Virus record (IMG/VR): IMGVR_UViG_3300035093_000027
Reading direction: 5' to 3' (one strand)
Origin: an uncultured virus (IMG/VR IMGVR_UViG_3300035093_000027)
Taxonomy: Duplodnaviria > Heunggongvirae > Uroviricota > Caudoviricetes
DNA: 64,000 nt
Shown here: positions 1 to 48,261 of the stretch, piece after piece
Layout: the number at the start of each line of letters is the position of its first letter
Numbering within the stretch: the first letter of the stretch is position 1
Notes under the pieces: model-generated
What the model saw: only the letters and a program-made list of their open reading frames with translations
Told to the model about the DNA's origin: nothing
The model's database searches: none
Translations under genes and position numbers: made by a program

Positions 1-13
1 ACGCGCAGTCGCT

Positions 14-415
14 GTGCCGGCGGCGCTCGAGCCACCGCTGGTCGTGCCTACCCGATCGCGACCCCACGCGACTGCGCGCGGATCTGCACTGCCCCCGCCT
101 GTGCCAGCGCCAGTTCAAGCGTCGCGCGCCGTGGCCGTCGCGTCATCGCGGCAGATCCAAGGTCGGACCAACCGAGACGACACACCGCCCGCACCATCGA
201 AGCTGGGCGAGCTGCGCTCGATCATCGCGCGCATGCAGCAACGGATCGAGCAACTCGAGGCGGCCTCTGCGGGAGCGTCCGATAGCCAGGCGCGGATCGA
301 CCTGCTCGTCGAGATCCTGGACGAGGCCATCGAGATCATCTCGCTGCCCGACGGGGTCGTGAACCGCCGACGTCTGCGCCAGAGGATCGAGGAAGCCAGG
401 AAGGTGCTCGGATGA
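14..415 (+). CDS. Hypothetical protein with C-terminal coiled coil (probably 5'-truncated)
   Basis: ORF with heptad-like segment; stop overlaps next ATG at 412. Confidence 0.55.
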   Translation: MPAALEPPLVVPTRSRPHATARGSALPPPVPAPVQASRAVAVASSRQIQGRTNRDDTPPAPSKLGELRSIIARMQQRIEQLEAASAGASDSQARIDLLVEILDEAIEIISLPDGVVNRRRLRQRIEEARKVLG

Positions 416-510
416 ACCAGTCCACGCAAGCGATGATCGTGCTCTTCGCACCTGTGATCGTGCTGATCCTCGTCATCGTCCTCGACCAGATCTGGAGCCG
501 TCGCAAATGA
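412..510 (+). CDS. Small membrane peptide (32 aa)
   Basis: MNQSTQAMIVLFAPVIVLILVIVLDQIWSRRK; ATGA overlaps at both ends; not in ORF track. Confidence 0.55.
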   Translation: MNQSTQAMIVLFAPVIVLILVIVLDQIWSRRK

Positions 511-734
511 CCGTCATCGTCACCACCGCCTTCGAACACGACGGACGCAAGTTCACAGCAGAGGGCACGTGGACGCCGACGCCGGCGCGCTGCGGCTTCG
601 CGCCGACCGGCGACGTCGTGGTCGTCTGCGTGCTGTCGCGTGCAACCGGTGCCCGCATGGAACCCATCGAAGGAGGCGGACTCCACCGTGCGGCCAGCGC
701 GGCGATCCGCAAAGCAGCCAGAAAGGACTCGTGA
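507..734 (+). CDS. Hypothetical protein
   Basis: ATGA-coupled ORF in operon. Confidence 0.55.
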   Translation: MTVIVTTAFEHDGRKFTAEGTWTPTPARCGFAPTGDVVVVCVLSRATGARMEPIEGGGLHRAASAAIRKAARKDS

Positions 735-880
735 GCGATGAAACTGCAGCAGTTGATGGCACTCGCGGAGCGCGTGACGAGCAACACGAAAGAGCGACTG
801 CGCACCGTCCAACTCGTCGAGACGTTCAAGGACGCCAGCGGCACCCGCGTGCGCGCGAGCGAAGAACTGCTGGGGTCGTA

Positions 881-1483
881 ATGAGCAGTGGCAACGACAA
901 CCGACTCAACCTCGCTGAGATCCACTTCGACGTGTGGCCATACGGCGATGCGCTGTGGATCGAACGTCGTGCCATGGCGCGCGGTGAGCACCAACCGAAG
1001 CTGCTCGAAGGCGTCAACTTCTACATCGGCGGACCGGTGACGTATACGTCCGTCCACACCGCGATCCTCCGCACCGCGTCGCAGCTTCGAAGCCTCGCCT
1101 ACCTCGATAGCGCCCATGCTGTGGTGAAAGTGCACGCAGAGGAACGGCGCGCGCCCAAGATCGGAACGTTCGACGAAGCCTGCGGTGAAGTGAGCGATGA
1201 CGGCATCGACCTCGAGTTCGCCGGTGCGTGCCCGGTACAGGGCTACGGGATGGTGCATGGTAACCCCGCGTACTACCGCTCGCGCGGAACCGGATGGTCG
1301 CTCGATGTCTACGCAGTAGGCGTCGACGTCTGCTCCGAAGAAGACCCCACGGATCCGATCTTCTCTCACGACGAGAACCCGTACGCGTTCCCCGACGGGG
1401 GATGGATCCATCGAGACGAGTCGATCGCCAACATCCGCAAGGCCGCCGCCGCGTTCGCGGCGTGGAAGGCGGAGAACCCATGA
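881..1483 (+). CDS. Hypothetical protein
   Basis: ATG at 881 overlaps the TAA of a small upstream ORF (738-881); stop overlaps next start. Confidence 0.6.
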   Translation: MSSGNDNRLNLAEIHFDVWPYGDALWIERRAMARGEHQPKLLEGVNFYIGGPVTYTSVHTAILRTASQLRSLAYLDSAHAVVKVHAEERRAPKIGTFDEACGEVSDDGIDLEFAGACPVQGYGMVHGNPAYYRSRGTGWSLDVYAVGVDVCSEEDPTDPIFSHDENPYAFPDGGWIHRDESIANIRKAAAAFAAWKAENP

Positions 1484-2445
1484 GCGACGGAAGTTCGATC
1501 GAGTGGTGCCACGCTACGTGGACGATCGCGGTGGGTTGCACGCGCGTGAGCGCGGGCTGCGACAACTGCTACGCGATCAGCTTCGTGCACCGCGGACTGC
1601 ACGAGACGCACCGCGGGCTCACGAAGCTCCGCTCGAAGGACGCCGCACGTCCCGGCGTCGACTGGAACGGAACGGTGCGCACGCTGCCGGAGCGTCTCTC
1701 CGATCCGCTGAAGTGGAAGAAGCCGCGGCGCGTGTTCGTCGGATCGATCACCGATCTGTTCCACCCGTCGATCCCGTTCGAGTACATCGCGGCCGTCTTC
1801 GGAGTGATGGCCGCGTGCCCGCAGCACACGTTCCTCGTGCTGACGAAGCGTCCCGAGCGAGCGCGCGCGTTCTTCGACCACATTTTCGGGTTGGAGAACT
1901 GCGCCGAGACGGTCGCGTGGGAGGGCGAGCGGCACGGCGTGGTCTGGGACGCGCGCGGCAGCGAGGCGTTCCGCTACCCGCCGCATGAGCCGCTCAACCT
2001 CGCGAATCGCCGGGCATTCGAGTGGCCGCTCCCGAACGTCCAACTCGGCACGAGCGTCGAGGACCAGGCCACCGCCGACGCGCGGATCCCCGAGCTGCTG
2101 CAGTGCCCGGCCGCCGTGCACTGGGTGAGCCTCGAGCCGCAACTCGAATACGTGGTGCTGGCGAAGCGCATGCAGTCCGGCAACCGCACGTGGATGAACG
2201 CGCTCTACCACTTGGGTTGGTTAGTTGTTGGCGGAGAGTCTGGGCCCGGCGCTCGTCCGTTCCACGTCGAGTGGGCGCGCTCGTTGCTCGAGCAGGCCCG
2301 TGGTCTCGACACGAAGGTGTTCGTGAAACAGCTAGGCGCGCATCCGCAGTGGAACGATCCACGAGACGCCGTGTTCACCGACGACCGCAAGGGCGGCACG
2401 ATGGAGGACTGGCCGATCGACCTGCGCGTGCGCGAGGTGCGGTGA
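1480..2445 (+). CDS. DUF5131 (phage Gp37/Gp68) family radical-SAM-like protein
   Basis: SSIEW..ATW...GCTRVSAGCDNCYA, VFVGSITDLFH, LTKRPER, SLEPQL, VVGGESGPGARP, FVKQLG. Confidence 0.9.
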   Translation: MSDGSSIEWCHATWTIAVGCTRVSAGCDNCYAISFVHRGLHETHRGLTKLRSKDAARPGVDWNGTVRTLPERLSDPLKWKKPRRVFVGSITDLFHPSIPFEYIAAVFGVMAACPQHTFLVLTKRPERARAFFDHIFGLENCAETVAWEGERHGVVWDARGSEAFRYPPHEPLNLANRRAFEWPLPNVQLGTSVEDQATADARIPELLQCPAAVHWVSLEPQLEYVVLAKRMQSGNRTWMNALYHLGWLVVGGESGPGARPFHVEWARSLLEQARGLDTKVFVKQLGAHPQWNDPRDAVFTDDRKGGTMEDWPIDLRVREVR

Positions 2446-2461
2446 TGCGCGTGGAGACTCT

Positions 2462-3061
2462 GTGACCCGATCGCGCGGAATACGAAGGAGGCAGAAAGAG
2501 GACGTGATGGTCCGCTTCTGGCGGTATGTTCACAGCGAACCCAACACCGGTTGTTGGCTGTGGGTCGGAGCTCTGCATGAAGCGGGATACGGGATGCTCA
2601 ACGTCGACCAGCGCGCAGTCCGAGCCCACCGAATATCCTACGAACACTTCCGTGGCCCGATTCCCGCGGATCTCGAACTCGATCATCTCTGTCGGCAGCG
2701 ATGCTGCGTAAATCCTGATCATCTTGAGGCGGTCTCCCATCAGGAGAACATGCGCAGAGGGCAGCTCTTCGACCTTGGAGAGTTGTCGCGACGCAAGGAC
2801 TCGTGTCCTTTTGGGCACCCGTACGATGAGCAGAACACCGTGTCATACAGGGGCCACAGGAAATGCCGAGCCTGCCACACGCAGGACAGCAAGGCACGAA
2901 GCATTGCCGCTCGCTCTCCCGAGTATCCGATCCCGCATCAACGCCGGAAGACCCACTGCCCGCAAGGACACCCGTACAACTCCGAGAACACACGGCTGTA
3001 CCAAGGACGTCGTTACTGCAAGATTTGTCAGAAGCGACATCGAGACGCGCGGGTACGATGA
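2462..3061 (+). CDS. HNH endonuclease with two C-terminal Zn-binding repeats
   Basis: CWLWVG..GYG..RAHRISY..LDHLCRQRCCVNPDHLE; CPxGHPY..NT..RxCxxC twice; start may be ATG 2506. Confidence 0.9.
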   Translation: MTRSRGIRRRQKEDVMVRFWRYVHSEPNTGCWLWVGALHEAGYGMLNVDQRAVRAHRISYEHFRGPIPADLELDHLCRQRCCVNPDHLEAVSHQENMRRGQLFDLGELSRRKDSCPFGHPYDEQNTVSYRGHRKCRACHTQDSKARSIAARSPEYPIPHQRRKTHCPQGHPYNSENTRLYQGRRYCKICQKRHRDARVR

Positions 3062-3456
3062 TGCCGATCGTTGTAAATCGACATCACTTCATGTACGTCG
3101 ACGGCGTCGGTCCTCCGCCGAAAAAGAAGCCGCGCAAGGGCAAGAACTACCTTCCTGCGCCGTGGATCTACGTGGGCCGCAAGGTGTCCGGCCATCCGGG
3201 AGGATCTCCGCTTGCGAATCAGTATCGTCCGCGAAGCGCGAGCTTCGACGGCGAGGCGGTCACCCACGACGCGGCGCTGGCGCTCTACAGGCGCTGGTTG
3301 TGGCAGAAGATCCGCGGCAACGACTACTCCGTGCTGCTGGCCATGCGATCGATCACCGATGATTCCGCCCTCGTGTGCTCGTGCGCGCCGAAGGCCTGCC
3401 ATGCCGACATCGTGCTGCGCGCTTGGCAGTGGGTGCGCGCGCGTGGGATGCTATAG
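3058..3456 (+). CDS. DUF4326 family protein
   Basis: IYVGR..GSPLAN..YRRWL..LVCSCAPKACHADIV. Confidence 0.8.
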   Translation: MMPIVVNRHHFMYVDGVGPPPKKKPRKGKNYLPAPWIYVGRKVSGHPGGSPLANQYRPRSASFDGEAVTHDAALALYRRWLWQKIRGNDYSVLLAMRSITDDSALVCSCAPKACHADIVLRAWQWVRARGML

Positions 3457-3513
3457 CCCGGGCATTGCGTCCAAACGGCCATCGGTACGCGCAGGCCGTC
3501 GTACGTAGCCAAC

Positions 3514-4116
3514 GTGCTACGATCCATCATCCGCGAGGTCAGAGTGCCCACGCGTTCAGACACCGAGTACCACGAGCGTCGAAGCAAGACTGAACCCGGT
3601 TTGGAGGCTGTACGCCGCCGAGACACGGGTGATCGCGATGCGGAACGCGACCGAGAACGGGACGCGGCCGATCGGCCGACCGTACGGGAGCCCAAGCCGC
3701 AGAGCGGATGGAGCCTCGCGTTCTCGCGGTCGAACCTTCGCGTGAGGATCAGCATCACGATCCTGACGTCGCTCGTTGGCGCCCTCGTCATGGTGTGTAC
3801 GCACCTGTGGACGTACGTGAAGGGGATCAACGTCGACAACGGCGAGCGCGATGCCGCGCTGTCCGAGGTACGTGCGGTGCGAGAGCAACTCGACGAGCAC
3901 GAGGCGCGCATGGCCACGATGGTCGTCGGCTACAAGGCGGATCTCGAGCGCAGCGACAAGGCCTTGCGCATACTCGCGCACGTGCAACTGTTGCAGTGGT
4001 CGTACGTCACGACCGTCGTCGAGGCCGCGCAGAAGCGCAAACCGATCCCTGGCAAGCCACCCGCGCTGGTCGAGGCCGAGACGAAGGCTGCGATCGCGCT
4101 GCGAGATCAGCCGTGA
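3514..4116 (+). CDS. Single-TM coiled-coil membrane protein
   Basis: Hydrophobic ISITILTSLVGALVMV followed by helical region; start uncertain. Confidence 0.55.
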   Translation: MLRSIIREVRVPTRSDTEYHERRSKTEPGLEAVRRRDTGDRDAERDRERDAADRPTVREPKPQSGWSLAFSRSNLRVRISITILTSLVGALVMVCTHLWTYVKGINVDNGERDAALSEVRAVREQLDEHEARMATMVVGYKADLERSDKALRILAHVQLLQWSYVTTVVEAAQKRKPIPGKPPALVEAETKAAIALRDQP

Positions 4117-4457
4117 GCCGAGAGCAGCGGATCACCGACTTCCACCAGGCCAACGCGATCCAGGTCGACGCGCTCACGGAGTTGCGCAAGCGCTTCCGCG
4201 AGGACGGCATGGACGAGGAAGCTAGGATGGTCGATCGCTCGGTGGTGGAGCTACAGTTGCCGGGTGAACCGGCCGAGCGTGTGCGTCGAGCGATCCCGCA
4301 TATCAAGGCGCTGCGCGTGCGCATGGGCGAGATCGGCGAACCCGTGCTCGCACAGGCCGTCGAGAACGTGAAGCGCGTGCTGACGCGCTACGCGGACGAC
4401 ACGCTCACGGACACCCAAGAGATCGACGTCGACGAGATGGGCTTCCGCAAGAAGTAG
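4113..4457 (+). CDS. Hypothetical protein
   Basis: GTGA-coupled start, helical ORF. Confidence 0.6.
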   Translation: MSREQRITDFHQANAIQVDALTELRKRFREDGMDEEARMVDRSVVELQLPGEPAERVRRAIPHIKALRVRMGEIGEPVLAQAVENVKRVLTRYADDTLTDTQEIDVDEMGFRKK

Positions 4458-4464
4458 CGATCAT

Positions 4465-4941
4465 TCACTTCGGCAAGAGCGGAGAGCGTAGCCGACCATC
4501 GGGGAGCCGAATCTCGTTGGCGAAGTCGGGTCGGCGGTGGAACCTGCTTGCCGCGGTGATGATGTCTTCCTCGGACTCGCCGTCACGATACGTCACGTCA
4601 GTAAACGTGACATCGATCGCTTTTTTGCGAGAGCGTGTCTCCGACTTTTTCATATCCCACGCTCGTCCGACTTCGGCGAAGCGCTCTCCTTCGGCGGTGA
4701 GCTTCCATCCAGTTCGCGACACTTCACGATCCGTCTGTCCTGGCAGCTTGACGTCACGGACGAGATTCTGGGAATGCATAGACGCGGCAACCTTGAACTG
4801 CGAGAAGCTCGTCGGCTGCCATGGTTCATCCGACATGCCGAGCATCTTGATCAAGAGCGACCGCTGGCCCGGCGTCATCGCCTTCCACTGTCGGATGTCC
4901 TCGTCGTGCGACGACGCGTTCTTCTTCTTGGACTTGCTCAC
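4465..4941 (-). CDS. Hypothetical protein, possible winged HTH
   Basis: GGAG RBS; MTPGQRSLL...WKLTAEGERFA pattern. Confidence 0.6.
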   Translation of the reverse strand: MSKSKKKNASSHDEDIRQWKAMTPGQRSLLIKMLGMSDEPWQPTSFSQFKVAASMHSQNLVRDVKLPGQTDREVSRTGWKLTAEGERFAEVGRAWDMKKSETRSRKKAIDVTFTDVTYRDGESEEDIITAASRFHRRPDFANEIRLPDGRLRSPLLPK

Positions 4942-4944
4942 CGT

Positions 4945-5418
4945 TTACTCCTCCGGCGTGTTGCGGAGCGCCTCGACCTGCTCGCGCAGATCCTGCTCGT
5001 AGGCGTAGAACGCGATCTTCGTGATCACGTCGGTGACGCCAGTCGCACCCCACGTCGACGGATCCTCACCGATCGCGTCCTCGATGGACGTCCACTTGTC
5101 GGACTGTACGACGATGTCGAGCGCGTGGCGCGTGTACGTGACCGCGGAGTCTGCCGCCTCGTGGATGAGCGTGTCGACGCGATCGTTCACATCGTCCGAT
5201 CCCATGGCCTCGGCGAGGATGTCCTTCGCCGCCGCCCTGATCCCGCGGTAGTAGCGGGCTCGCGCGATCTGAGCTGCGTCTTCGAGCACCTTGTCGAACT
5301 CCGGTCCGTTGGGGAACTCGGACTTCGCTCGCATCGGTTTGTTCGTCGGTTCCTTGCCGCTCGATTTCTTCGAGCGCGCAGCCTTCGACGACTTGGTCTT
5401 GGTCTTGGTCTTCGCCAT
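4945..5418 (-). CDS. Ocr (T7 gp0.3)-like DNA-mimic anti-restriction protein with basic N-terminal extension
   Basis: IHEAADSAV and DVITKIAFYAYEQ resemble T7 Ocr IHMAADNAV and DVIRILQARIYEQ (recalled from memory) at similar spacing; acidic core. Confidence 0.7.
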   Translation of the reverse strand: MAKTKTKTKSSKAARSKKSSGKEPTNKPMRAKSEFPNGPEFDKVLEDAAQIARARYYRGIRAAAKDILAEAMGSDDVNDRVDTLIHEAADSAVTYTRHALDIVVQSDKWTSIEDAIGEDPSTWGATGVTDVITKIAFYAYEQDLREQVEALRNTPEE

Positions 5419-5502
5419 CTTCGTTGTCCGCAGCTCCTCGCCGCGTCCTGTGCCGTCTATGACGGCACATCGGGCGACGGCATTCCAGCTCCGCATGCGC
5501 TC
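5416..5502 (-). promoter_or_regulatory. Repeated cassette, copy 1: operator + ECF-like promoter + leader
   Basis: GAGCGCATGCGGAGCT-GGAAT-N17-CGTC...GGACGCGGCGAGGAGCTGCGGACAACGAAG-ATG; conserved blocks identical to 24562-24649. Confidence 0.75.
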
Positions 5503-5601
5503 CTCTGATCTGGTCATGAACCTGGTTCCGAACGTAGATTTCGACGTTTCGACATGGGGGCACCCCCCAGGGTGGTCACCTTTCGACTGGTATGCACGGG
5601 G

Positions 5602-5838
5602 ATGCCCAAGCAACCACCGCCACAGTCCGAAGACGACCTGCTACGACGCGACGAGGTCGCACGCATGTACGGCGTGGAGCCTGCCACCATCTCGGCGTGG
5701 CTGTACCGTAGAGATGGTCGTCTGCCTTCTCCGATTCGGATGGGACGTAACTACTTGCGTTGGAGAAGAGGCGACGTCCTCGCGCGTCTCCGTGCGATCG
5801 CAAAGGGTGAGGTGGCGGTGTTCCCTGGACGTCGTTGA
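5602..5838 (+). CDS. AlpA/excisionase-like HTH protein
   Basis: LLRRDEVARMYGVEPATISAW...LPSPIRMG..LRWRRGDV. Confidence 0.8.
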   Translation: MPKQPPPQSEDDLLRRDEVARMYGVEPATISAWLYRRDGRLPSPIRMGRNYLRWRRGDVLARLRAIAKGEVAVFPGRR

Positions 5839-6110
5839 CGCTCGAGGACGAATCGGCGCCGGCCGGTCGCCTTCGTGCTCGCGGTGCCTGTCGCCCATCA
5901 CAGCCAGCGATCAGACTGGGCCCGCCTGTGAGCGGGAGCGGCGAGATCCGCCGCGGACGTCGAGACTTCACAGCCTTTCGGGCTCCATCCCGACGAACAC
6001 CGTCTCCTACTACACGACCCGTGCCAACCATAGCGTCGTGACGTTCGTGGATGTCGGCCTGCAGTGCGCGCGGATCCGAGACAAGGATCCTTGTCGGTCC
6101 ACAAGGCCGC

Positions 6111-6887
6111 TTACGCCTGCTGGGCGACGAAGGCCTCGACGCGATCGCGCCACGCCTTGGTCTGCGCACCCGTCAGGTCGTGGCCCGAGCTCGTGAAGGC
6201 CTCGAAGCTTACGGGCGCCCCGCGCTCGGCCGCCCACGCCGCATTCTGCTGCGCGGCCGCGAACGGGATGGTCGTGTCGCGCGTGCCGTTGAGCATCACC
6301 GTCGGCGCCATGTTGGGGCGCCACAGACCCGACGGCATGTCGCCGTTGACCGCCACTGCTCCGCCGAGGAGCCGGCGGTGCTGGGTGGCCATCACGAGGG
6401 TCATCTCGCCGCCCGAGCTCGCCCCGGTGATGATGGGCTTGCCCAGCGTCGGTCGGCAGCGCGCGAGCGTCTTGACGAGCCGCGCGAGCCGCTCAGCGTG
6501 CTGCGCCCACGCGTGGGACTCGGCGTTGTCGAAGCCGCCCTCGAGCGTCGCCTTCAGCCCCGCCGGGAACCACATGTACCCGTGGATCGGCGACTCGAAG
6601 CCGCCCTCGGGAACGATGAGGCGTGCGCGTCCGATCCCGTTCATGCCCGACGCGTAGCCCTCGGGCGTCGCGTCGCGTGCGTGCAGGAGCACGACCATCG
6701 GCACGCGCTCCGAGCTCGACGCTCCGCCGCGCATGCGCTCGAGGTAGCGGACGCCCTCCGCGGTGCCTCCGTCCTCGCCGACGCCGCTGCAGTCGGGGCC
6801 GCCGAAGGCGTAGGCGATGCCGGCCGCGCCGAGCCCGGCAGCGGCTGCGCCAGCCGCTGCGACCCACGGCACCCACCTACGCGCCAT
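6111..6887 (-). CDS. Membrane-anchored alpha/beta hydrolase (phospholipase/carboxylesterase-like)
   Basis: N-terminal TM; VVLLH, nucleophile elbow GASSGG, NGTRD (Asp), SGH (His). Confidence 0.8.
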   Translation of the reverse strand: MARRWVPWVAAAGAAAAGLGAAGIAYAFGGPDCSGVGEDGGTAEGVRYLERMRGGASSSERVPMVVLLHARDATPEGYASGMNGIGRARLIVPEGGFESPIHGYMWFPAGLKATLEGGFDNAESHAWAQHAERLARLVKTLARCRPTLGKPIITGASSGGEMTLVMATQHRRLLGGAVAVNGDMPSGLWRPNMAPTVMLNGTRDTTIPFAAAQQNAAWAAERGAPVSFEAFTSSGHDLTGAQTKAWRDRVEAFVAQQA

Positions 6888-7140
6888 GGTCGATCTCCTG
6901 CGCGAGCTCGAAGTCGCTATCACGCAGCTCGAGCGTGTCGTGCCATGCACCGCCGGCCAGCGTGGCGTCGGGGACCCGGATCTCGACGAGGTAGACGCCG
7001 GGCCCGAGGAACGCGACGACGAGGCCGTCCGATCCGGACGGGTGCACGCGGATCGGCTCGGCGGCGCTCTGCAGGTTCGCGGTCGTGCGCACCGTCGCGC
7101 CGACGCGAGCATCGCTCACCGATCGCAGGGCTTCGTTCAT
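6877..7140 (-). CDS. Hypothetical protein
   Basis: Coupled ORF between hydrolase and transglycosylase. Confidence 0.55.
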   Translation of the reverse strand: MNEALRSVSDARVGATVRTTANLQSAAEPIRVHPSGSDGLVVAFLGPGVYLVEIRVPDATLAGGAWHDTLELRDSDFELAQEIDHGA

Positions 7141-7817
7141 CCGAAGAGTCCTCCGCACGCATTCAGCAGTTGCGCGTACCAGCCCATGCGCTCGCGCGTC
7201 GCCTCGACGTACTGTCGCACGTCGGACGACCACGTTCCGTTGGCCCCGCCTGCGCCCGCGTTGTATGCCGCGAACGCCCAGTCGGTGCCCTTGCCGGCGT
7301 CGATGAGCTTGCGCAGCAACGCGGCACCCAGCCACATGGACTGCCGCGGATCGCTGCGATCGACCCAGTCGGCGACGCCCTGCGCTTGGATCTTCGCGAG
7401 ACCCGGGTCGCGGTTGTTGGTCACCGCGGAGAAGGGCCACTTGTTGGCCTCGGCGAGATCCTTGAACACCGCGGCTGCGGTGCCGGGGATCATCTGCGTG
7501 AAGCCAGCGGCCACCGAGTTGTGCGCATCTGGATTCCAGCGCGACTCCGTGTGCACGATCGCGGCGAGCACCTCGGGGTCGAGCCCGAACTGGCTCGCGG
7601 CGTAGCGCGCCAGTGGCATGTACCGCCACGCGCGCTGCACCACCTCGTCGTTGACGTGGGTGCCGAGCGTCTGGCGATACGTATCGATCGAGCACGAGTC
7701 ACCTTCGGCTGGCCACGACGAGCTCGCCAACGCCGTGACCGCGTAGCCCGTCATGCCGATGGCCACTGCTCCGAGCGCAGCTCCTGTCCAGATCATCCAT
7801 GGGTCGAAGCGCTTCAT
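7137..7817 (-). CDS. Lytic transglycosylase (SLT domain) with N-terminal TM
   Basis: AIVHTESRWNPDA, GFTQMIPGTA, AFAAYNAG. Confidence 0.9.
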   Translation of the reverse strand: MKRFDPWMIWTGAALGAVAIGMTGYAVTALASSSWPAEGDSCSIDTYRQTLGTHVNDEVVQRAWRYMPLARYAASQFGLDPEVLAAIVHTESRWNPDAHNSVAAGFTQMIPGTAAAVFKDLAEANKWPFSAVTNNRDPGLAKIQAQGVADWVDRSDPRQSMWLGAALLRKLIDAGKGTDWAFAAYNAGAGGANGTWSSDVRQYVEATRERMGWYAQLLNACGGLFG

Positions 7818-8497
7818 GGGTTCGTCCCCGGACCGGCGGCCACGAGTAGGAGGTACGTGGGGTCGAGCAGCGCCGCAGGCGGAGCGCCGCCGTGCCACGG
7901 GAAGTTCTTGGTGGTGCCCGGCGCGTAGGTCTCGAAGTGCAGCATGTGGCTGTCGCAGTCGCTCTCACTGCCGACCATGCAGCCGATCCGTGCGATCTGT
8001 TGGCCCGCTCGCACTTGCGATCCGATGCCGACGCCGAAGTCGTTCCACGAGCCGGGGCGGATCTCGCCGTAGAGCGCAACGAAGCCGGGATGCGCCACGA
8101 GCATCGCAGACGTCCCGAGATGGAAGCTCTGCGTCGCGATGACGACGCCGTTCGCGATCGCGACGACGGGCTCGCCGTTGACGCCGTAGAGATCGACAGC
8201 CGCGTGGCGCCGTCCGTCTCGAGGCGCTCCAAAGGCACGCGACTGGTTGCCGTGCTTTCCGCCGTTGACGTCGACGTAGCCCACCTGACCGCGACGATCG
8301 TCACGGGTGAGCACGGGCCATACGACGCGACGAGGCACCGGTGCGAAGGGGGCAGGGCTCGGGCGCGGCGGCACGACGCCAGCGGGCAGACGCGGCGTCG
8401 AGAACAGCCCGACGACGCCGTAGCCCACCATGCCGAGCGCGACGGCGCCGAGTCCCGCGGCGGTCCAGATCTGCCACGCCTCGGGCTGGCGCGCCAT
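7814..8497 (-). CDS. M23 family peptidase with N-terminal TM
   Basis: FGAPR..RRHAAVDL, VRAGQQIARIG, HMLHFE. Confidence 0.9.
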   Translation of the reverse strand: MARQPEAWQIWTAAGLGAVALGMVGYGVVGLFSTPRLPAGVVPPRPSPAPFAPVPRRVVWPVLTRDDRRGQVGYVDVNGGKHGNQSRAFGAPRDGRRHAAVDLYGVNGEPVVAIANGVVIATQSFHLGTSAMLVAHPGFVALYGEIRPGSWNDFGVGIGSQVRAGQQIARIGCMVGSESDCDSHMLHFETYAPGTTKNFPWHGGAPPAALLDPTYLLLVAAGPGTNP

Positions 8498-8501
8498 GGC
8501 G

Positions 8502-8720
8502 TCAGCCCTTCTCGATGTACTCGCGGCTGAGGGTCTCGGAGTCGGCGAGCGCGACGATGGCCTTGTCGAGATCGCCGGCCTGCGCGTGGCGGGCCAGCCG
8601 CTCGCGCACCTCCGCGATCGTCTGGGCGCCGCGAGCCGCTTCGCGCACGACGACCGCGACGGTCTCGAGGATCGCCTCGCGGTTGCGGCGGGAGCCCAGG
8701 ATCTTCGACAGCCAACTCAT
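8502..8720 (-). CDS. Small hypothetical protein
   Basis: Coupled ORF with GGAGG RBS. Confidence 0.6.
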   Translation of the reverse strand: MSWLSKILGSRRNREAILETVAVVVREAARGAQTIAEVRERLARHAQAGDLDKAIVALADSETLSREYIEKG

Positions 8721-9160
8721 CGCAGCCCCTCCACGGCGTTCTCGGCCTGCTCGAGCGCGGGCGTGGCCTCGCGGATCTCCTCGAGCGCGGTCGCGATCTC
8801 GTCGTACGCGCGGGCCAGCGCCTCGAAGGCCTCGCGGACCTGGCCGATCTGGTCAGGCGCGAACCCCTTGCGACTCAGGCAGGCCTCGCGGGCTTCCGGC
8901 GTGGATGCGTCGCCGAGCTCGGCGCGGCAGACGTTGATCGCCTCGAGCGTCGCATCGCGGTAGGCGCGGGCGCCCTCGTTGGCGGCAACGTCGACGATGG
9001 CCATCGATTTGTCGGCGTAGCGCGTCGCGTCCGATAGCGTCTGCGCGCATCCGACGAGGGTGACGAGGCCGAAGATCCCGAACCACGTCGCGATCGCCAT
9101 CACGCGCACGTGCTCGTAGTGGCGGATGGCAGCGATGGCGGCTCGGTCGATGGGTGTCAT
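8717..9160 (-). CDS. Putative lipoprotein with helical ectodomain (spanin-like position)
   Basis: Hydrophobic stretch ending LVGC (lipobox-like), next to lysins. Confidence 0.5.
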   Translation of the reverse strand: MTPIDRAAIAAIRHYEHVRVMAIATWFGIFGLVTLVGCAQTLSDATRYADKSMAIVDVAANEGARAYRDATLEAINVCRAELGDASTPEAREACLSRKGFAPDQIGQVREAFEALARAYDEIATALEEIREATPALEQAENAVEGLR

Positions 9161-9759
9161 TGGACCGGCTCGTACGTGTCGCCACCGACGGGCTCACCCG
9201 GTGGCAGCCGCATCGCACGGCTCCACTTGCGCAGGCCATACACCGCAGCGCCTGCGACCGCGACTCCGCCGACCACGAGCGCGACGGTCGTGGCGGCCGG
9301 GTTGCTCTTTCGGCTGGTGTGGCCGCCACCGACGGCGCCGCCCGCCGCCGCTCCGATGGGGCCGAGCATGCCGCCGAGCGCTCCACCGATCGCGCCTCGA
9401 CGATCGCGCTTGTCGGGCGCGCCGATGTGCCCACCGATCGCACCGCCGGCGATCGAGCCGGCCCACGACAGCAGGGGCAGGAGTGCGATCGACGACATCT
9501 CACCAGCGGTGATCTCCGTGGTTCCCGCGTCGGCCTCGTCCATGACCTTCTTCGTGGCCGCGCCGAGTCCCGCCGCTGCGCCGGCGATCCCGCCCAGCAG
9601 CGAGCCGACGCCGGCGCCGATCCCTGTCGTGAGCGCGGAATCTCCGTCCCATGGATTGCGGCGACGACGAGAGCGCCGACGACGTCGGCGACGCGGGTTC
9701 GCTTCGGGTGTAGCCGAGCTCGTCTTCGTGCGCTTCGCGGGGTTCTTCTTCTTCGCCAT
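9157..9759 (-). CDS. NP-motif glycine-zipper membrane protein
   Basis: KKKNP, NPRRRRRRRSRRRRNPW, RKSNP; GxxxG repeats. Confidence 0.75.
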   Translation of the reverse strand: MAKKKNPAKRTKTSSATPEANPRRRRRRRSRRRRNPWDGDSALTTGIGAGVGSLLGGIAGAAAGLGAATKKVMDEADAGTTEITAGEMSSIALLPLLSWAGSIAGGAIGGHIGAPDKRDRRGAIGGALGGMLGPIGAAAGGAVGGGHTSRKSNPAATTVALVVGGVAVAGAAVYGLRKWSRAMRLPPGEPVGGDTYEPVQ

Positions 9760-10307
9760 CACATGCCTTCGACTTCCGCCCATGCGAGCTCGACCAGTTG
9801 CGGCCATGTCAGGTTCATCGCAAGCGTCCACTGCTCGGCTTGCCAGAACGAGTTTGCGGTGTTGTTGCCGATGAGGCCGTCTTCGACGAGCGCGGGTCCG
9901 GGAACCGGCGCGGGCAGTTGGATCCGGCGCACCACGTTAAAGTCGCGCTGGAACTCGCTGACCGCCTGGATGGGCAGCGCGTCGATGACGGTCCACTGCT
10001 CGTTGGTGTGGATCGGGCCGACGTCATAGCCCCACGCATCGAGCTGGATCCCGAACGCATGCTCGTTGGGGTAGCGATCGATGTGCGGCCACGTCTCGAG
10101 ATGCGGGACGTAGTTGAAGTTGATCGTCTCCTTCGGACCAGACCCTGCACCCGCCAGCTTTTTCTGGCGCCAGAACCAGGCCGCCGTGCCGACGAGAGCA
10201 GCACCACCCACGGCCGCCACGATCTTCCGACCGCGGGACCATGGATTTCTCCCGCGCCGCTTGCTTCGAGAGCTACGGCGGCGCGGGTTGGGACGAGCTC
10301 GGCTCAC
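9759..10307 (-). CDS. NP-motif membrane protein with peptidoglycan-binding-like domain
   Basis: NPRRRSSRSKRRGRNPW + TM; AVSEFQRDFN...EDGLIGNNT. Confidence 0.7.
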   Translation of the reverse strand: MSRARPNPRRRSSRSKRRGRNPWSRGRKIVAAVGGAALVGTAAWFWRQKKLAGAGSGPKETINFNYVPHLETWPHIDRYPNEHAFGIQLDAWGYDVGPIHTNEQWTVIDALPIQAVSEFQRDFNVVRRIQLPAPVPGPALVEDGLIGNNTANSFWQAEQWTLAMNLTWPQLVELAWAEVEGM

Positions 10308-10993
10308 GAGACGTTCGAGGCCTCGGCGACGAGCGACTTCCACGTCTGCGTGGCCGACCACAACGACGCGTCGTAGAACGCGCGGGCCGTCCCCGCGCCG
10401 AACAGACCATCGGTCGCGATCGGACCCGAGGTCGACGGCTCCGGCGACAGCCCGAGCTGATCGGCCGCGGCGCGCACGAGGTTGTAGTCCTCCTGGAACT
10501 CGGTCGTCGCATCCATCGCGACCTTGCGCACCATGTTCCAGTCGTCCGCGTTGGTGTCACCGGGGTTGTAGCCGAGCACCTTGAGCTGCGTTCCGAGCTG
10601 CCGGTTGTTCGGCCATCGATCCTTGTGCGGCCACACGAACGGCGACACGGTCTGTCCGATCGCGGCGAGCGCGATGTGGCAGTCGACGTAGTTGCAGGCC
10701 TTCGCTCCGCTGCCGCCTCCGCCGCCGCCACCACCTCCACCACCTCCGCCACCACCACCGGGCGGGGGCGGCGGGGGAAACTGCTTCTTGCGACGGCGAT
10801 ACGCGGCGTAGCCGACTCCGGCTCCGAGCGCGACCGCGGATCCTGCCGCGATCATCACCCACGTAACCGCGGTCGGGTTCATGCGCGCGCGTCCGGGATT
10901 CTTGCGCTTGCGCTTGCCCTTCTTGCTGCGGCCGCCTCGGCGGCCGCGACGGGAGCCGCGGGGGTTGTCTTCGGGAGCCGGGAGCTGCTGCAT
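10304..10993 (-). CDS. NP-motif membrane protein with Pro/Gly linker and peptidoglycan-binding-like domain
   Basis: PEDNP..KRKRKNP + TM; poly-P/poly-G; EFQEDYN...TDGLFGAGT. Confidence 0.7.
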   Translation of the reverse strand: MQQLPAPEDNPRGSRRGRRGGRSKKGKRKRKNPGRARMNPTAVTWVMIAAGSAVALGAGVGYAAYRRRKKQFPPPPPPGGGGGGGGGGGGGGGGSGAKACNYVDCHIALAAIGQTVSPFVWPHKDRWPNNRQLGTQLKVLGYNPGDTNADDWNMVRKVAMDATTEFQEDYNLVRAAADQLGLSPEPSTSGPIATDGLFGAGTARAFYDASLWSATQTWKSLVAEASNVS

Positions 10994-11096
10994 GCGCGGG
11001 ACCCTACCAGCATCGGCGCGGATCGGTACAAGCGCCGAAAACAAGGCGATACGGCCCATTCGCGCATCAGGTCAGTCGCGCTCGAGCGAGCGTCAT

Positions 11097-12938
11097 CTAC
11101 CAGACCTCGATGTAGATCGCTCCGGGACCACCTGCGCCGCCGTTGCCTCCGGCGACGGCACCGTGCGCAGAGCCTCCACCTGCTCCGCCGCCGCCGTGCG
11201 ATCCACCAGCGCCTCCGACAGCGCCCACGACTGCGGTCGTCGAGCCACCACCACCACCACCACCTGTGCCGCCATAGGCCGATGTCCCCGTCACGCCTGC
11301 TGTGCCTGCTGTGCCTGCAGCACCGCTCGTGCCTGCAGCACCACCGGTACCAGCGGTGTACGTGGCTTGTCCTCCACCCGCAGTCGGCGGTAGTGCAACC
11401 GGAACGTTCGACGAACCTCCACCCGATCCACCGCCTCCGCCACCTTGCAGTGAACTCCCTCCTGCGCCGCGACTAGTGATGCCGTTGTTGCCGCCACCGC
11501 CTGCGCCTCCGTTTTCGGCGAATGCTCCGGGGTTGCTTGAGATTCCTGTTGCACCTGCTCCTCCGGTGTTTCCGACTGCGTTTGCAGTTGGACTGGAGCT
11601 CCCGTTGGGACCTCCTCCCGCGCCCGTGCCCGAGCCGGTGCCCCCCGCACTCTGACCGCCTCCGCCGCCGCCACCGGCGGCGACAGCACTGACGGATTGA
11701 CCACCTTGACCGCCGCCGCCACTGAAAGCGCTTAGGATCACCGGAGATCCGAACGTCGAGTTCCCGCCGGGTGTGCCGGATCCACCGGTCGCAGCGGCAG
11801 CGCCCGCACCACCAGGTCCGCCTGCACCGATGGTGAAGTCGACCGTGCTCGGCAACTCACTCGCGAGATAGAAGCGTTCGGCATGATAGCCACCGCCTCC
11901 GCCACCGGCCCCGATGTTGGCTGTGGCCGCCGCTCCCGATCCACCGCCGCCTCCACCACCTCCCGCGTAGAGCACGACGCGCACGAGCACTGCGCCCGGC
12001 GGGATGTTGTACGTGCTCGAGCCGGGTGTATCGCTGAAGAAGCTCGCGGTCGCATCTTGCCACGCGATCGTTCCGCCGCTTTGGGACACGAGGATCTGTC
12101 GAGGACCCGAAGGCGATACGTCTTGCGGATCTCCGATGGCCGCGGTCGGGTTCATCTTGACGCTCGCCGCCGGCATGTTGGCGAGCTTCGCGTTGTCGAT
12201 CTGATCGTCGCCGACCTGTCCGGTCACGAGCTGCGCGGCGACGAGGTTGCCGGCGACGCGACCGACTACGGTGTTCGTGCCGACCGCCATGTCCTGCGGA
12301 TCTCCGGGCGCCGCGGTCGGGTTGGTCTTGATCGAGTTCGCGGCCATGTCCGCGAGCTGGGTGTTGGTGATCGCGTTCGCGGGCACGTCCCACGTCACGG
12401 TTGCAACGCCGACGGTGACGGCGACCGTCGACGTCGACGTCGCGACGCGATCGTTGGTGAGCGTGGCCGTGGCCTGCCACGTCACATACGGCGCGCCCTG
12501 CAGCGCTGCGACGTCCGCCTGCAGCGCTGCGACCGCAACTTGCAGCGCTGCGACGTCCGCCTGCAGGACGGCGACTTGGCCTTGAAGGACGCCGACGTCA
12601 CCCTGTAGCGCGATCACCTGCGCTTGTAGTAGAGCAACGTCCGCTTGGAGTTGCGCGACTGCGGGGCCGAGTCCTCCGCCTCCACCGGATCCGATCGGCG
12701 CCCATCCGTTGACCGTGCCGGGCTCACCGAAGAACTGGAAGATCCCGAGATCGGAGAAGCGGAAGTCACCGAGTCCCCATCCGATCTCGACCCCTTCGGG
12801 AGATCCCTCGATCGCGCCGCCGATGATTCCTTGGCTAGCGGTCTCCGAGAGAAACCGAAAACGGATCCGATAGACGTCGAGCGCCTCGATGACGTCGGTG
12901 TATCCGGGACTGTAACTTGCTGGTCCTGTGCCGCCCAT
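11097..12938 (-). CDS. Gly-rich fibre/spike protein with heptad coiled coil (paralog 2)
   Basis: LQADVAA heptads, repeated ITN..LADM..NPT..DPQD units, Gly-rich C-terminal domain ending GAIYIEVW. Confidence 0.75.
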   Translation of the reverse strand: MGGTGPASYSPGYTDVIEALDVYRIRFRFLSETASQGIIGGAIEGSPEGVEIGWGLGDFRFSDLGIFQFFGEPGTVNGWAPIGSGGGGGLGPAVAQLQADVALLQAQVIALQGDVGVLQGQVAVLQADVAALQVAVAALQADVAALQGAPYVTWQATATLTNDRVATSTSTVAVTVGVATVTWDVPANAITNTQLADMAANSIKTNPTAAPGDPQDMAVGTNTVVGRVAGNLVAAQLVTGQVGDDQIDNAKLANMPAASVKMNPTAAIGDPQDVSPSGPRQILVSQSGGTIAWQDATASFFSDTPGSSTYNIPPGAVLVRVVLYAGGGGGGGGSGAAATANIGAGGGGGGYHAERFYLASELPSTVDFTIGAGGPGGAGAAAATGGSGTPGGNSTFGSPVILSAFSGGGGQGGQSVSAVAAGGGGGGGQSAGGTGSGTGAGGGPNGSSSPTANAVGNTGGAGATGISSNPGAFAENGGAGGGGNNGITSRGAGGSSLQGGGGGGSGGGSSNVPVALPPTAGGGQATYTAGTGGAAGTSGAAGTAGTAGVTGTSAYGGTGGGGGGGSTTAVVGAVGGAGGSHGGGGAGGGSAHGAVAGGNGGAGGPGAIYIEVW

Positions 12939-12973
12939 GGTGTTGCTCCTTCAGTTCGTTCTCGAGTCGCGCG

Positions 12974-14800
12974 CTACCACGTCTGGATGTAGATCGCGCC
13001 GTCGCCACCCGAGGCGCCGTTGCCACCGCTGGCCGTGCCGCGTGCTGCACCGCCACCGCCACCGCCGCCGCCGTTCGCTCCGCCAACACCTCCCACGCTG
13101 CCTACCGATGTCGTAGTGGTCCCGCCACCACCTCCGCCGCCTTCACCGCCGAACGCAGACGTTCCGTCCGCACCGGGTCCGCCTGGCGTCGACGTCAAAC
13201 CGCCCGTCCCGGCCGCGCCACCTGGTGCTGTGTACGTATGCTGGCCGCCACCAGGTCCGGCTGGTTGGTAGACGCCGACGTTGCTGCATCCACCTCCGAT
13301 ACCTCCACCGCCGCCGCCTTGGAGCGATCCTCCGCCACCAATCCCAAGGCCGTTGGTCGACGCGCCTCCGCCTCCGCCTCCTCCGTTCTCGGCGAAGCCT
13401 CCCGTGTTCGCAGAACTGCTCGCCCCGGTGCCACCGGTGTTTCCCTCGGCGTTGGATCCTTGGACCGCGACCGCGTTAGGACCACCACCGATCCCGCCTG
13501 AGGCGACCGCCGTCGCGCCAGCACTCTGACCACCTCCGCCTCCGCCACCACCGGAGCTGCTGTTCTGTTGACCGCCTCGTCCACCGCCTCCCCCGAAGGC
13601 CGTCAGGATCACCGGAGATCCGAACGTAGAACTCCCGCCGACGGTACCGCTGCCTGCATTGATGCCAACGACGCCCGCTCCTCCGTTGCCGCCTCCGCCC
13701 ACCGTGAAGTCGATGGTCGTCGGCAGTTCACTCGCGAGGTACGTGCGCTCGGTTCGAAATCCTCCGCCACCACCTCCGCCTCCTCCCACGTTCTGGGTCA
13801 GAGCACTGCATCCGCCACCGCCACCGCCTCCGCCTCCGTAGAGCACCACGCGAACGAAGCGCGCGCCCGCAGGGATGTCGTACGTGGCGGCGCCGGATGT
13901 GGTGCTGAGGAAGTTCTGGACGAAGGGAGCCCACGCGATCGTGCCGTCGTCTTGCGAGATCAGCGTCTGCGGGGACGTAACTGCTGCGACGTCCTGCGGA
14001 TCGGCCGCGGCGATCGTCGGGTTCATCTTCACGCTTCTCGCCGGCATGTTGGCGAGCTTCGCGTTCGTGATCTGGTCGTCGCCGACTTGGCCGGTGACGA
14101 CTTGCGCCGAGACGAGGTTGCCGGCGGCGCGGCCAAGCACTGTGTTCGTGCCGACCGCGAAATCTTGCGGATCGGCGACGCCTGCCGTCGGGTTGGACTT
14201 GACCGTGTTCGCGGGCATGTCCGCGAGGATCGCGTCGGTGATCGCGTTGGCCGGTACGTCCCACGTGATCGTGTTCGCGGCGACCGTGGCGTCGATCGTG
14301 GTCGTGTCCGTCGCGACGCGGTCGTCGGTGAGCAGCGCGCTGGCTTGCCACGTCAGATAGGGCTCGGTGGCCAACGCCGCGATCGGTGCGGGCAGTGCAG
14401 CGATCGCGGCCTGCAGCGCGGTGACATCGGCCTGCAGGACGGCGACGTCGTTCTGCATCGTTCCGACGTCGCCTTGCAAGGCGACCACCTGACCTTGGAG
14501 GATCGCGACGTCGACCAGGAGTTGCGCGACCTCGGGACCGAGGTTGCTGCCGCCCATGGCGACCCAGCCGATCCGCGTACCGGGCACACCGAAGAACTGG
14601 AAGATCCCCTCGGTGCTGAATCGGAAGTCGCCGCGCACCCAGCCGATCTCGATGCCGTTGGGATTGCCGCGGAAGGCGGCGCCGTTGAGCGCTTGGCTCA
14701 AGACGGTCGACAGCATCCGAAAGCGCAGTCGATGCAGGTCGACGGCCTCACGAAACGACGTGATGCCGGGGCTGTAGCTGGCGGGACCGGTGCCTCCCAC
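12974..14800 (-). CDS. Gly-rich fibre/spike protein with heptad coiled coil (paralog 1)
   Basis: Collinear with 11097-12938, same N-terminus MGGTGPASYSPG. Confidence 0.75.
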   Translation of the reverse strand: MGGTGPASYSPGITSFREAVDLHRLRFRMLSTVLSQALNGAAFRGNPNGIEIGWVRGDFRFSTEGIFQFFGVPGTRIGWVAMGGSNLGPEVAQLLVDVAILQGQVVALQGDVGTMQNDVAVLQADVTALQAAIAALPAPIAALATEPYLTWQASALLTDDRVATDTTTIDATVAANTITWDVPANAITDAILADMPANTVKSNPTAGVADPQDFAVGTNTVLGRAAGNLVSAQVVTGQVGDDQITNAKLANMPARSVKMNPTIAAADPQDVAAVTSPQTLISQDDGTIAWAPFVQNFLSTTSGAATYDIPAGARFVRVVLYGGGGGGGGGCSALTQNVGGGGGGGGGFRTERTYLASELPTTIDFTVGGGGNGGAGVVGINAGSGTVGGSSTFGSPVILTAFGGGGGRGGQQNSSSGGGGGGGGQSAGATAVASGGIGGGPNAVAVQGSNAEGNTGGTGASSSANTGGFAENGGGGGGGASTNGLGIGGGGSLQGGGGGGIGGGCSNVGVYQPAGPGGGQHTYTAPGGAAGTGGLTSTPGGPGADGTSAFGGEGGGGGGGTTTTSVGSVGGVGGANGGGGGGGGAARGTASGGNGASGGDGAIYIQTW

Positions 14801-14811
14801 GCGCTATCTCC

Positions 14812-15747
14812 TCACGCGACGCCGTGTTCGACGGCGACGAGACTGGTGACTGCCTTGATCGCCTGCTGCACTTCGCTCGAGGTTCGGATTGCGCCGAGCG
14901 ACCACCATGTGATGGCGCTGGGCCGCTGTGACTGCGCACCTTGGAATGACGCTCGGATCGCCGAGTCGATCGTGTGACCCGCGATCCCGCGTTGGTTGTA
15001 CGAGGCCAGGCCGACGACGAGTTCGCGATCGCCGAAGGTCTCGCGCCAGCGCGCGCACAGTTTCGGCGCCACCTCGGCTGGCCGCAGCGACGTGGTGTTG
15101 GTCGCGTAGCACTGCGGCAACATGAAGCTGCTGCGCTTCACGAGCGGTCCGAGCTTGGTCGGCGACGCGTATCCGATTCCGGTGACGCCCCACTTCAGAT
15201 CGGGCCCGAGCACTTCGGCGACCAGATCGGACGCGGACGTGTACGACATGGGCTTGATCGCCTGCGTCCAAGGTTCCTCGGCGTCGAGTACGAGGCTCGT
15301 GTATGGCACTGCCTCGTGGAGCTCGCGCAACTCGAGACCCATGCGACGGATGTACGGATCGTGTGGCATCACCCACGAGGTGACGTGCGCATCGAGGCCG
15401 GCATCCACGGCGGTCTTGAGCAGGGCCTTGATCCTGCTCATCGAGTACGTGTCGTAGTCGCGGGCCTGCCTCGCCTTGCTGTGGTCGTTGATGATGATGT
15501 CGAGCCGCTGCAGTCCGACCTTCTTCGCCAGGGCCACGTCACGACGGATCGCGGCGTCGCTCGCCATGCTCGCCCATCCGGCCCATGCACCGCAGCGCAT
15601 CGGCGTCCGTGGCACTGGCGTCGGATCGACGTCCTCCATCGAGCTCGGGATCGGGATCACGACGCGCGTCTCGTCCGACTCGGGATGGTTGCTCGTCCAC
15701 CAGCCGGTGAGCAGGTCGAGCAGGCCTTGTGCGGAGAGAGTCGCCAT
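14812..15747 (-). CDS. Hypothetical protein, possible glycoside-hydrolase-like TIM barrel
   Basis: Alternating beta/alpha pattern, LVLDAEEPW, FMLPQCY. Confidence 0.45.
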   Translation of the reverse strand: MATLSAQGLLDLLTGWWTSNHPESDETRVVIPIPSSMEDVDPTPVPRTPMRCGAWAGWASMASDAAIRRDVALAKKVGLQRLDIIINDHSKARQARDYDTYSMSRIKALLKTAVDAGLDAHVTSWVMPHDPYIRRMGLELRELHEAVPYTSLVLDAEEPWTQAIKPMSYTSASDLVAEVLGPDLKWGVTGIGYASPTKLGPLVKRSSFMLPQCYATNTTSLRPAEVAPKLCARWRETFGDRELVVGLASYNQRGIAGHTIDSAIRASFQGAQSQRPSAITWWSLGAIRTSSEVQQAIKAVTSLVAVEHGVA

Positions 15748-15750
15748 GGC

Positions 15751-17915: not shown

Positions 17916-17916
17916 G

Positions 17917-46464: not shown

Positions 46465-46486
46465 CGAGTCGCATCGTAACGCCAAT

Positions 46487-48157: not shown

Positions 48158-48196
48158 TCGCGTTCGCTCGTCCATCAGATCGTTGAACGACGAGGG

Positions 48197-48236: not shown

Positions 48237-48261
48237 CCGGCCTCCCACAGGAAGATCAGCG

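Follow-up and report, generated by a model that had tools for sequence, protein, structure and literature searches.

The Ocr protein of bacteriophage T7 is the reference DNA-mimic anti-defence protein; it is a known trigger of the phage anti-restriction-induced system (PARIS) and is mostly seen as a feature of T7-like coliphages. Dar of phage P1 and IPI of phage T4 are anti-restriction proteins of the injected type. A review regards “Ocr and relatives” as a typical feature of virulent phages, with expression during DNA entry, and it calls the mimics ArdA, Arn, and Gam non-homologous to Ocr (PMC12707154). An “Ocr-like antirestriction protein” has also been annotated in actinobacteriophages (Rhodococcus phage ChewyVIII gp86, Urza gp75), so that the annotation as such already existed beyond T7-like phages; Urza gp75 is reported not to have overcome the single system tried. 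Here, we analyzed a stretch of DNA from an uncultured virus (IMG/VR record IMGVR_UViG_3300035093_000027), hereafter the window, which comprises 64 kb of a 130-kb JGI/IMG contig with 62–70% guanine plus cytosine (GC). A gene at positions 4945–5418 of the window encodes a protein, P0001, with a Lys-rich N-terminal arm and an acidic core. On the basis of sequence profiles, the predicted fold, and the predicted dimer interface, we conclude that this core is a remote homolog of T7 Ocr. The gene and its two parts, with the GC content at third codon positions (GC3), the isoelectric point (pI), and the predicted local distance difference test (pLDDT) where applicable, are as follows:

4945–5418, minus strand: Ocr-related gene; open reading frame (ORF) with translation; GC3 0.86–0.88; remote homology to T7 Ocr
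5314–5418, minus strand: disordered Lys-rich arm, codons 1–35; net charge about +10; partly an AAG-ACC repeat; pLDDT 55–69
4948–5313, minus strand: acidic all-helical core, codons 36–157; 25 Asp/Glu and 12 Lys/Arg residues; pI 4.4; residues 57–151 correspond to Ocr residues 8–101

Relationship of P0001 to T7 Ocr

The minus-strand ORF at 4945–5418, stop codon included in the span, has 157 codons and encodes a protein of 157 amino acids, the translation of which opens with MAKTKTKTKSSKAARSKK. The segments on which the original prediction of an Ocr-like mimic had drawn are present in P0001, namely KTKTKTKSSKAARSKK at residues 3–18, DTLIHEAADSAV at residues 82–93, and TDVITKIAFYAYEQDL at residues 129–144. 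The T7 Ocr segments that it had quoted were correct when checked against gene 0.3 from the T7 record and the alignments.

The relationship to Ocr stood out from chance only at the profile level. The main alignment (A2) contained 149 sequences, namely P0001, P0003, P0004, and P0005–P0150, with P0002, P0151, and P0152 left out. A search of 177,635 PDB sequences with the A2 profile placed T7 Ocr (1s7z) at the top, with an E-value of 3.8e-4 over residues 8–115 of 117, and the matches that followed had E-values above 0.5. Comparison of A2 with an alignment of 27 T7-type Ocr homologs (A3) using hhalign gave a probability of 93.6–93.8% and an E-value of about 2e-7 over 90–97 columns, covering Ocr residues 8–101/106. 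Reversal of the A3 columns gave 1.4%, the best of 30 random column orders gave 6.7%, and the score was 44.3 for the real alignment versus up to 20.9 in the shuffled-column controls. In addition, matches of hidden Markov models (HMMs) were reciprocal: the family HMM matched true Ocr homologs at up to 35 bits, and the Ocr HMM, in turn, gave scores of up to 28.5 bits for family members and of 18.1 bits for P0001 itself. The Ocr-like identity that had been proposed for this protein is therefore that of a remote relative, visible in the hhalign and PDB profile results.

Single-sequence comparisons gave a fainter signal. In one directed BLASTP comparison of P0001 with T7 gene 0.3, the identity was 32% over 103 amino acids (E = 8e-4); the blocks H-x-AAD-[SN]-AV and Y-E-Q-x-x-D-L of this alignment were common to P0001 and T7 Ocr, as was the column that holds D143 in P0001 and D93 in Ocr. 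In the PDB sequences, no Ocr match was obtained at E-values up to 10 with phmmer from P0001 alone or with a four-sequence profile.

The Ocr fold comprises helices A–D and two loops. At the level of the predicted fold, Foldseek with the P0001 model returned Ocr chains at ranks 2, 7, 10, and 23. With VIA-align, Ocr chains occupied ranks 1–5 and 7 (Z = 5.5–7.5, root-mean-square deviation (rmsd) 3.5–4.0 Å, 98–101 residues). A fold search independent of Foldseek ranked Ocr first among 48,161 representative PDB chains (Z = 6.9, rmsd 3.5 Å, 99 of 106 residues); the runner-up had a Z of 6.0 over 73 residues, a margin of only 0.9. For the acidic decoys ArdA (Tn916 Orf18), Arn, and Gam, no match to P0001 was found by PDB sequence or profile searches, Foldseek, or VIA. 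Thus, the sequence profiles and the fold independently singled out Ocr and nothing else, which argues for remote homology.

A divergent family known from metagenomes

When 1.84 billion representatives were searched exhaustively with a profile, a family of 182 proteins (clusters at 50% identity) was obtained at E-values of 1e-3 or lower; 31 of them were at 1e-10 or lower and four at 1e-30 or lower. The Pfam ocr model matched eight of the 149 members of A2, all weakly (best E-value 4.7e-4), and phrog_2568, “ocr-like anti-restriction,” weakly matched two; eight of the 149 was the highest count for any Pfam or PHROGs family. One relative, P0143, bears a precomputed PF08684 label. P0001 is thus in a divergent branch of the Ocr superfamily that is not captured by curated family models.

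The nine relatives that were examined were all metagenomic and bore no informative name; the source label “plasmid stability protein” of one relative was not relied on. A word-indexed search with the family alignment returned six matches, none of them named. A fold search of BFVD found only unnamed or uncharacterized viral proteins (best E-value 3.5e-4), and a search of the ESM Atlas gave no usable match. No family member was found in 50,697 GenBank phage records by tblastn with five family members as queries, and megablast of window positions 1–20000 found no DNA match among GenBank phages. Pattern scans of IMG/VR and GTDB genomes confirmed no relative. A metagenome scan yielded two loci, and genomic context was usable only for one of them, L002, which encodes P0003, the closest relative with genomic context. 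Among 16 long, possibly fused members, Pfam revealed no informative partner domain. In the literature, searched for basic-tailed DNA mimics and for remote metagenomic Ocr homologs, no description of the family was found.

Predicted structure, dimerization, and charge of the core

The AlphaFold2 model based on the 149-row alignment had a mean pLDDT of 89. The core was all-helical with a pLDDT of 95–98, and helices were predicted at residues 39–71, 77–92, 96–105, 111–115, 120–123, and 128–153. Two copies of residues 36–157, modeled with the alignment, gave a dimer score of 0.70 versus 0.01 for the best control; among proteins of solved structure, 20 of 30 pairs of one chain and one of 23 single chains reached this mark. 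The contacts agreed between runs at 100%, and the pLDDT of the partner was 90. The predicted interface comprised residues 100, 103–104, and 109–135 together with an additional N-terminal helix, 37–55. In the hhalign register, L100 of P0001 corresponds to Ocr F54, and I132 to Ocr L82; both Ocr residues are placed at the Ocr dimer interface in the PARIS structure paper (PMC10802264). P0001 is accordingly predicted to form a homodimer through positions equivalent to Ocr F54/L82. For the Ocr interface mutants F53D/A57E, no description was found in the literature.

The core of P0001 has a net charge of −13. A monomer of T7 Ocr contains 34 acidic and six basic residues (net −28); the median net charge among T7-type Ocr proteins is −24, or −0.21 per residue. 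Across the family, counted on the 146 of 149 rows with a core of 80–150 residues, the core was always acidic: its net charge ranged from −5 to −22, and the median was −15, or −0.14 per residue. Over 90 aligned columns, Ocr was predominantly acidic at 22 and the family at 14; the acidic columns of the two coincided at 11. An acidic C-terminal tail with a net charge of −5 or lower was present in 72 of the 146 members. For activity, an Ocr monomer reportedly requires about 16 acidic residues, with evolved variants carrying 14–17 still active (PMC4872106). The 25 acidic residues of the P0001 core exceed this reported minimum and would be compatible with mimicry, although its 12 basic residues have no counterpart in Ocr.

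A basic arm recurring at either end in the family

The strongly basic N-terminal extension of an otherwise acidic protein, as the original prediction had described it, is real. GC3 was 0.86 for codons 1–35 and 0.88 for the core, versus 0.68 for the in-frame stretch upstream; the Lys-rich start is therefore coding. In the AlphaFold2 model, the arm had no secondary structure. The KTKTKTK segment (codons 3–9; 5385–5409, minus strand) consists of about 3.5 tandem AAGACC hexamers, a possible slippage site able to vary the length of the arm.

Basic arms recurred in the relatives. An arm was defined as a 16-residue window with a net charge of at least +6. Among 151 family proteins, 31 had one, located toward the N-terminus in 16, toward the C-terminus in 13, and in the middle in two; none of 120 T7-type Ocr homologs had one. 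In P0003, the core of which is 59% identical to that of P0001, the N-terminus is short and a 33-residue Arg/Lys tail is located at the C-terminus. Several of the C-terminal basic tails (L002 8370–8477; P0012, P0014, P0016, and P0021) start immediately behind a conserved N-P-[SR] motif, where the last core helix ends. That the arm might simply result from high-GC composition or from the charge of the core was considered and rejected, as no association was detected (p = 0.09, 0.23, and 0.16). On a FastTree phylogeny of 146 cores, the presence or absence of the arm required at least 20 changes, and 24–28 changes were required in the first 10 of 200 label shuffles. The tree shows only that the arm is labile, because the short sequences leave it poorly resolved. 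Attachment at either end argues against a docked regulatory element that would need a fixed geometry and favors an electrostatic function without specificity, for example tethering to DNA or a loose masking. Non-specific DNA affinity would be the most likely role of the arm.

Upstream cassette and immediate neighbors

A 135-nucleotide (nt) gap between the P0001 gene and a divergent helix-turn-helix (HTH) gene contains a repeated cassette. The features of this region and the related copies are listed below:

5426–5449, minus strand: 24-nt leader, copy 1 of three identical copies; its end lies 9 nt ahead of the ATG at 5418
24423–24446, minus strand: 24-nt leader, copy 2; before a 92-amino acid gene at 24134–24412 (minus strand), start MTKTK
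24616–24639, plus strand: 24-nt leader, copy 3; before a 79-amino acid gene at 24647–24886 (plus strand), start MKAKNR
5487–5500, minus strand: 14-nt motif with a GCATGC palindrome; portion of the cassette upstream of the leader and aligned in register with it
5554–5838, plus strand: divergent HTH gene (excisionase/MerR-like); phrog_66, E = 2.5e-8; HTH_17, E = 1.6e-4, below cut-off
4465–4941, minus strand: downstream gene ORF158, 158 amino acids; GTG 3 nt past the stop codon of the Ocr-like gene; GGAGGAG 6 nt before the GTG

The three copies of the leader had no mismatch and each ended 9 nt before an ATG, where none would be expected by chance. The 14-nt motif is located about 40 nt upstream of the leader and occurred in three exact copies, the two further ones at 24500–24513 and 24564–24577, and in two copies with one mismatch; its count alone is weak, as five matches were reached in eight of 100 shuffles. 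The two one-mismatch copies form an inverted pair between small genes at 55198–55229, with a 6-nt spacer, a possible hairpin of 12–13 base pairs or palindromic operator. Because the three cassette copies were identical at the DNA level and their ATG codons were equally spaced, the cassette was taken as non-coding. The source gene call P0002 (183 amino acids), which starts 26 codons further upstream inside the cassette, was rejected on this ground and because the same reading of the copy at 24566 meets a stop codon.

The cassette had been taken for a repeated promoter. The repeat is real; however, no sigma-70-like promoter was found in 4300–6300, cassette included, so that a promoter role and early timing are putative. 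The immediate-early timing that had been suggested for the gene found no support in L002 either. L002 is syntenic with the window, with 36–85% protein identity across the hydrolase and tail-fiber block, and its Ocr-like gene lies on the same strand, directly after the hydrolase genes, with neither the HTH gene nor the cassette. Early expression is unsupported, since the gene does not lie at any known end of a genome and its L002 homolog is near mid-contig and free of the cassette.

The HTH gene is a candidate regulator of the common intergenic region. ORF158 is probably co-transcribed and translationally coupled with the Ocr-like gene, because its GTG lies 3 nt past the stop codon with GGAGGAG 6 nt ahead. 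It matched no Pfam, PHROG, or NCBIfam family, and its single-sequence AlphaFold2 model was unusable (pLDDT 41.7). As ORF158 is absent from L002, the slot beside the Ocr-like gene is variable. The cassette-linked starts at 5418, 4941, 24412, and 24647 are all Lys-rich (MAKTKTK, MSKSKKK, MTKTK, and MKAKNR, respectively), which may reflect a common functional tag or an effect of AAG-rich codons on translation start.

The carrier element

The window encodes tail-fiber-like glycine-rich proteins, three membrane-anchored cell-wall hydrolases, two helicases, a Toprim protein, a DUF927 primase-helicase, a Gp3-like recombination directionality factor, and HNH, DUF4326, and DUF5131 proteins. The two methyltransferase genes that had been noted in it both encode C5 cytosine methyltransferases:

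26948–28237, plus strand: C5 cytosine DNA methyltransferase; PF00145, E = 5.4e-27; phrog_363
34079–35296, plus strand: second C5 cytosine DNA methyltransferase; PF00145, E = 7.7e-31; phrog_116

No capsid, portal, or terminase gene was recognized in the window, and NCBIfam gave nothing usable for 12 large unassigned ORFs; the description as phage-like thus rests on the tail-fiber-like, lysin, helicase, primase, and methyltransferase matches. The carrier is not T7-like, in line with the original prediction: the contig is large and GC-rich, window positions 1–20000 have no DNA match among GenBank phages, and the window encodes the DUF927 primase, the C5 methyltransferases, and several helicases.

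Several other regions of the window were of note. Three consecutive exported or anchored cell-wall enzymes are encoded at 6111–8497 (minus strand), namely an alpha/beta hydrolase with a weak Peptidase_S9 match, an SLT transglycosylase, and an M23 peptidase; two of the three share a similar N-terminal membrane segment, which corresponds to a 70-nt DNA repeat (7737–7806 and 8414–8483). A 149-amino acid ORF at 23223–23672 (minus strand), on the same strand as and downstream of the cassette-led gene 24134–24412, has a run of about 30 residues that are almost all Asp/Glu and no Pfam or PHROG match; it could be another charge-based decoy. The segment 1294–3456 (plus strand) contains DUF5131 (Gp37/Gp68-like), HNH endonuclease, and DUF4326 genes, with overlapping candidate frames at 2462–3456. 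The best genome match of the DUF5131 protein was to a Nannocystales metagenome-assembled genome (48% identity), which is too weak to name a host. Finally, about 19 kb at 44737–63999 is filled with well-coding ORFs (GC3 0.76–0.90), including those for proteins of 483–643 amino acids; they had no PHROG, Pfam, or NCBIfam match except for one ChaB domain, and the segment could be an unrecognized structural module.

Proposed function and alternative explanations

We consider it reasonably probable that P0001 is a DNA-mimic inhibitor of restriction or bacteriophage exclusion (BREX)-type enzymes, with mimicry and targets both putative. The acidic Ocr-like dimer would occupy the DNA-binding cleft of defence enzymes that track along DNA, the targets being the methyltransferase cores of type I restriction-modification systems and the PglX-like enzymes of BREX, and occupation of the cleft would protect unmodified DNA of the element. 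P0001 would act alongside the two C5 methyltransferases, with self-methylation as a second anti-restriction layer. The flexible Lys-rich arm would be an add-on module, the attachment end of which varies among relatives, and its non-specific DNA affinity would place the inhibitor on or near the DNA scanned by the defence enzymes.

Several observations weigh against this reading. P0001 matched the Pfam ocr profile (PF08684) with 13.7 bits (E = 0.089; residues 57–110 on profile positions 6–61 of 101), below the curated gathering cut-off of 25 bits, and is outside PF08684 as curated. The structural check suggested in the original prediction, AlphaFold combined with Foldseek, did return Ocr chains; however, the similarity was weak, with E-values of about 1 and template-modeling scores of 0.42–0.50. 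The VIA Z values of 6.9–7.5 are in a range common for helical proteins, and the lead over the second-ranked chain is only 0.9. The success of the dimer prediction may in part reflect the model's knowledge of the solved Ocr dimer and is therefore read as likeness to Ocr, not as binding. The net charge of the P0001 core is about half that of T7 Ocr, and its 12 basic residues, twice the number in Ocr, have no parallel there; with the arm included, the whole protein has a net charge of only −3 and a pI of 5.5. Only half of the acidic Ocr columns (11 of 22) are also acidic in the family. Finally, the L002 homolog lies near the middle of an 80.6-kb contig, after the hydrolase genes, and the cassette is absent there.

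Some of these points would be expected if the resemblance to Ocr were convergent or due to chance and P0001 were a generic acidic helical bundle: the single-sequence Pfam match is not significant, Foldseek E-values are about 1, and Z values below 8 are common for helical models. However, the profile–profile scores were far above those of the reversed and shuffled controls, the HMM matches were reciprocal, Ocr was first among 48,161 chains with 93% of its length aligned, and the H-x-AAD-[SN]-AV motif, the D143/D93 column, and the equivalent dimer positions are common to both proteins, which makes a chance resemblance highly improbable. The charge data bear on another explanation, in which the Ocr fold is kept for a different job and the protein binds RNA polymerase or an H-NS- or HU-like protein, leading to host shut-off or re-programming and not to anti-restriction. 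T7 Ocr itself is reported to inhibit Escherichia coli RNA polymerase and to interact with H-NS (PMC12707154). The halved core charge, the retention of only half of the acidic columns, and the additional helix 39–55, which is absent in Ocr and joins the predicted interface, would fit a changed partner, and a basic tail would suit nucleoid association. Nevertheless, such a protein would remain a DNA mimic, no specific evidence points to any alternative target, and the two methyltransferases and the variable accessory slot fit anti-restriction at least equally well; we regard the different job as unlikely.

The position of the gene is relevant to the proposal that P0001 is a DNA-bound passenger packaged in the virion, the gene being expressed late and the polybasic arm binding the element DNA, so that the protein is co-delivered before gene expression. 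In both the window and L002, the gene ends a same-strand array of tail-fiber-like and hydrolase genes, in L002 directly after the hydrolase genes and with no cassette. Arms at either terminus are what a non-specific DNA tether would lead one to expect, and injected anti-restriction proteins are reported from other phages (PMC12373910). On the other hand, with arms in only 31 of 151 members, packaging cannot be the general mode of the family, the window gene has its own cassette in common with two small non-structural genes, and the structural nature of the neighboring genes rests on weak PHROG matches. Packaging therefore appears decidedly unlikely. A second, “tethered” design, in which an Ocr-type dimer with a movable polycationic tail sits on the element DNA, or in which the tail serves as a mask, is quite unlikely on the present evidence. 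The decoy would then travel with the genome, either co-injected after packaging or loaded onto DNA as it enters, and would meet restriction or BREX complexes at the very site of their engagement. In the masking alternative, the tail would cover the acidic surface until displaced by DNA, which would reduce toxicity and detection by PARIS-type sensors of Ocr.

If proteins of this family are active as the proposed DNA-mimic inhibitors, Ocr-type mimicry would extend well past the T7-like coliphages. The family is predicted to retain the fold and the dimer positions of Ocr at about two-thirds of its charge density; if active, its members would provide naturally occurring low-charge examples with which to find the amount of charge that mimicry requires. 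The branch is known almost only from metagenomes and was missed by curated models. In about one-fifth of its members, a polybasic tail is added at one end or the other, a feature absent from T7-type Ocr proteins, and activity would raise the testable question of what purpose a cationic tail serves on an anionic decoy.

Comparison with known systems

Among the described systems, ArdA (Tn916 Orf18), Arn, and Gam resemble P0001 as acidic dimeric decoys, a likeness that is likely one of functional analogy in the light of the review cited above (PMC12707154). ChewyVIII gp86 and Urza gp75, compared by annotation only, are similar in that an Ocr-related label is found in a high-GC phage that is not T7-like. 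They probably represent a branch separate from the present family, because the tblastn search of the 50,697 phage records with five family members found nothing.

The closest counterpart is T7 gp0.3 Ocr (1S7Z; PF08684; phrog_2568). Unlike T7 Ocr, P0001 has the additional N-terminal helix 39–55 and a polybasic arm of 35 residues, the latter found in none of the 120 T7-type homologs. Its carrier is large and GC-rich, whereas T7-like phages have genomes of about 40 kb, and its gene is not the first at a known genome end, in contrast to T7 ocr, which is the first early gene at the leading end. In common with T7 Ocr, the modeled core of P0001 is all-helical, comprises about 100 residues in the same helix order, is acidic (pI 4.4), and is predicted to form a homodimer through the F54/L82-equivalent positions.

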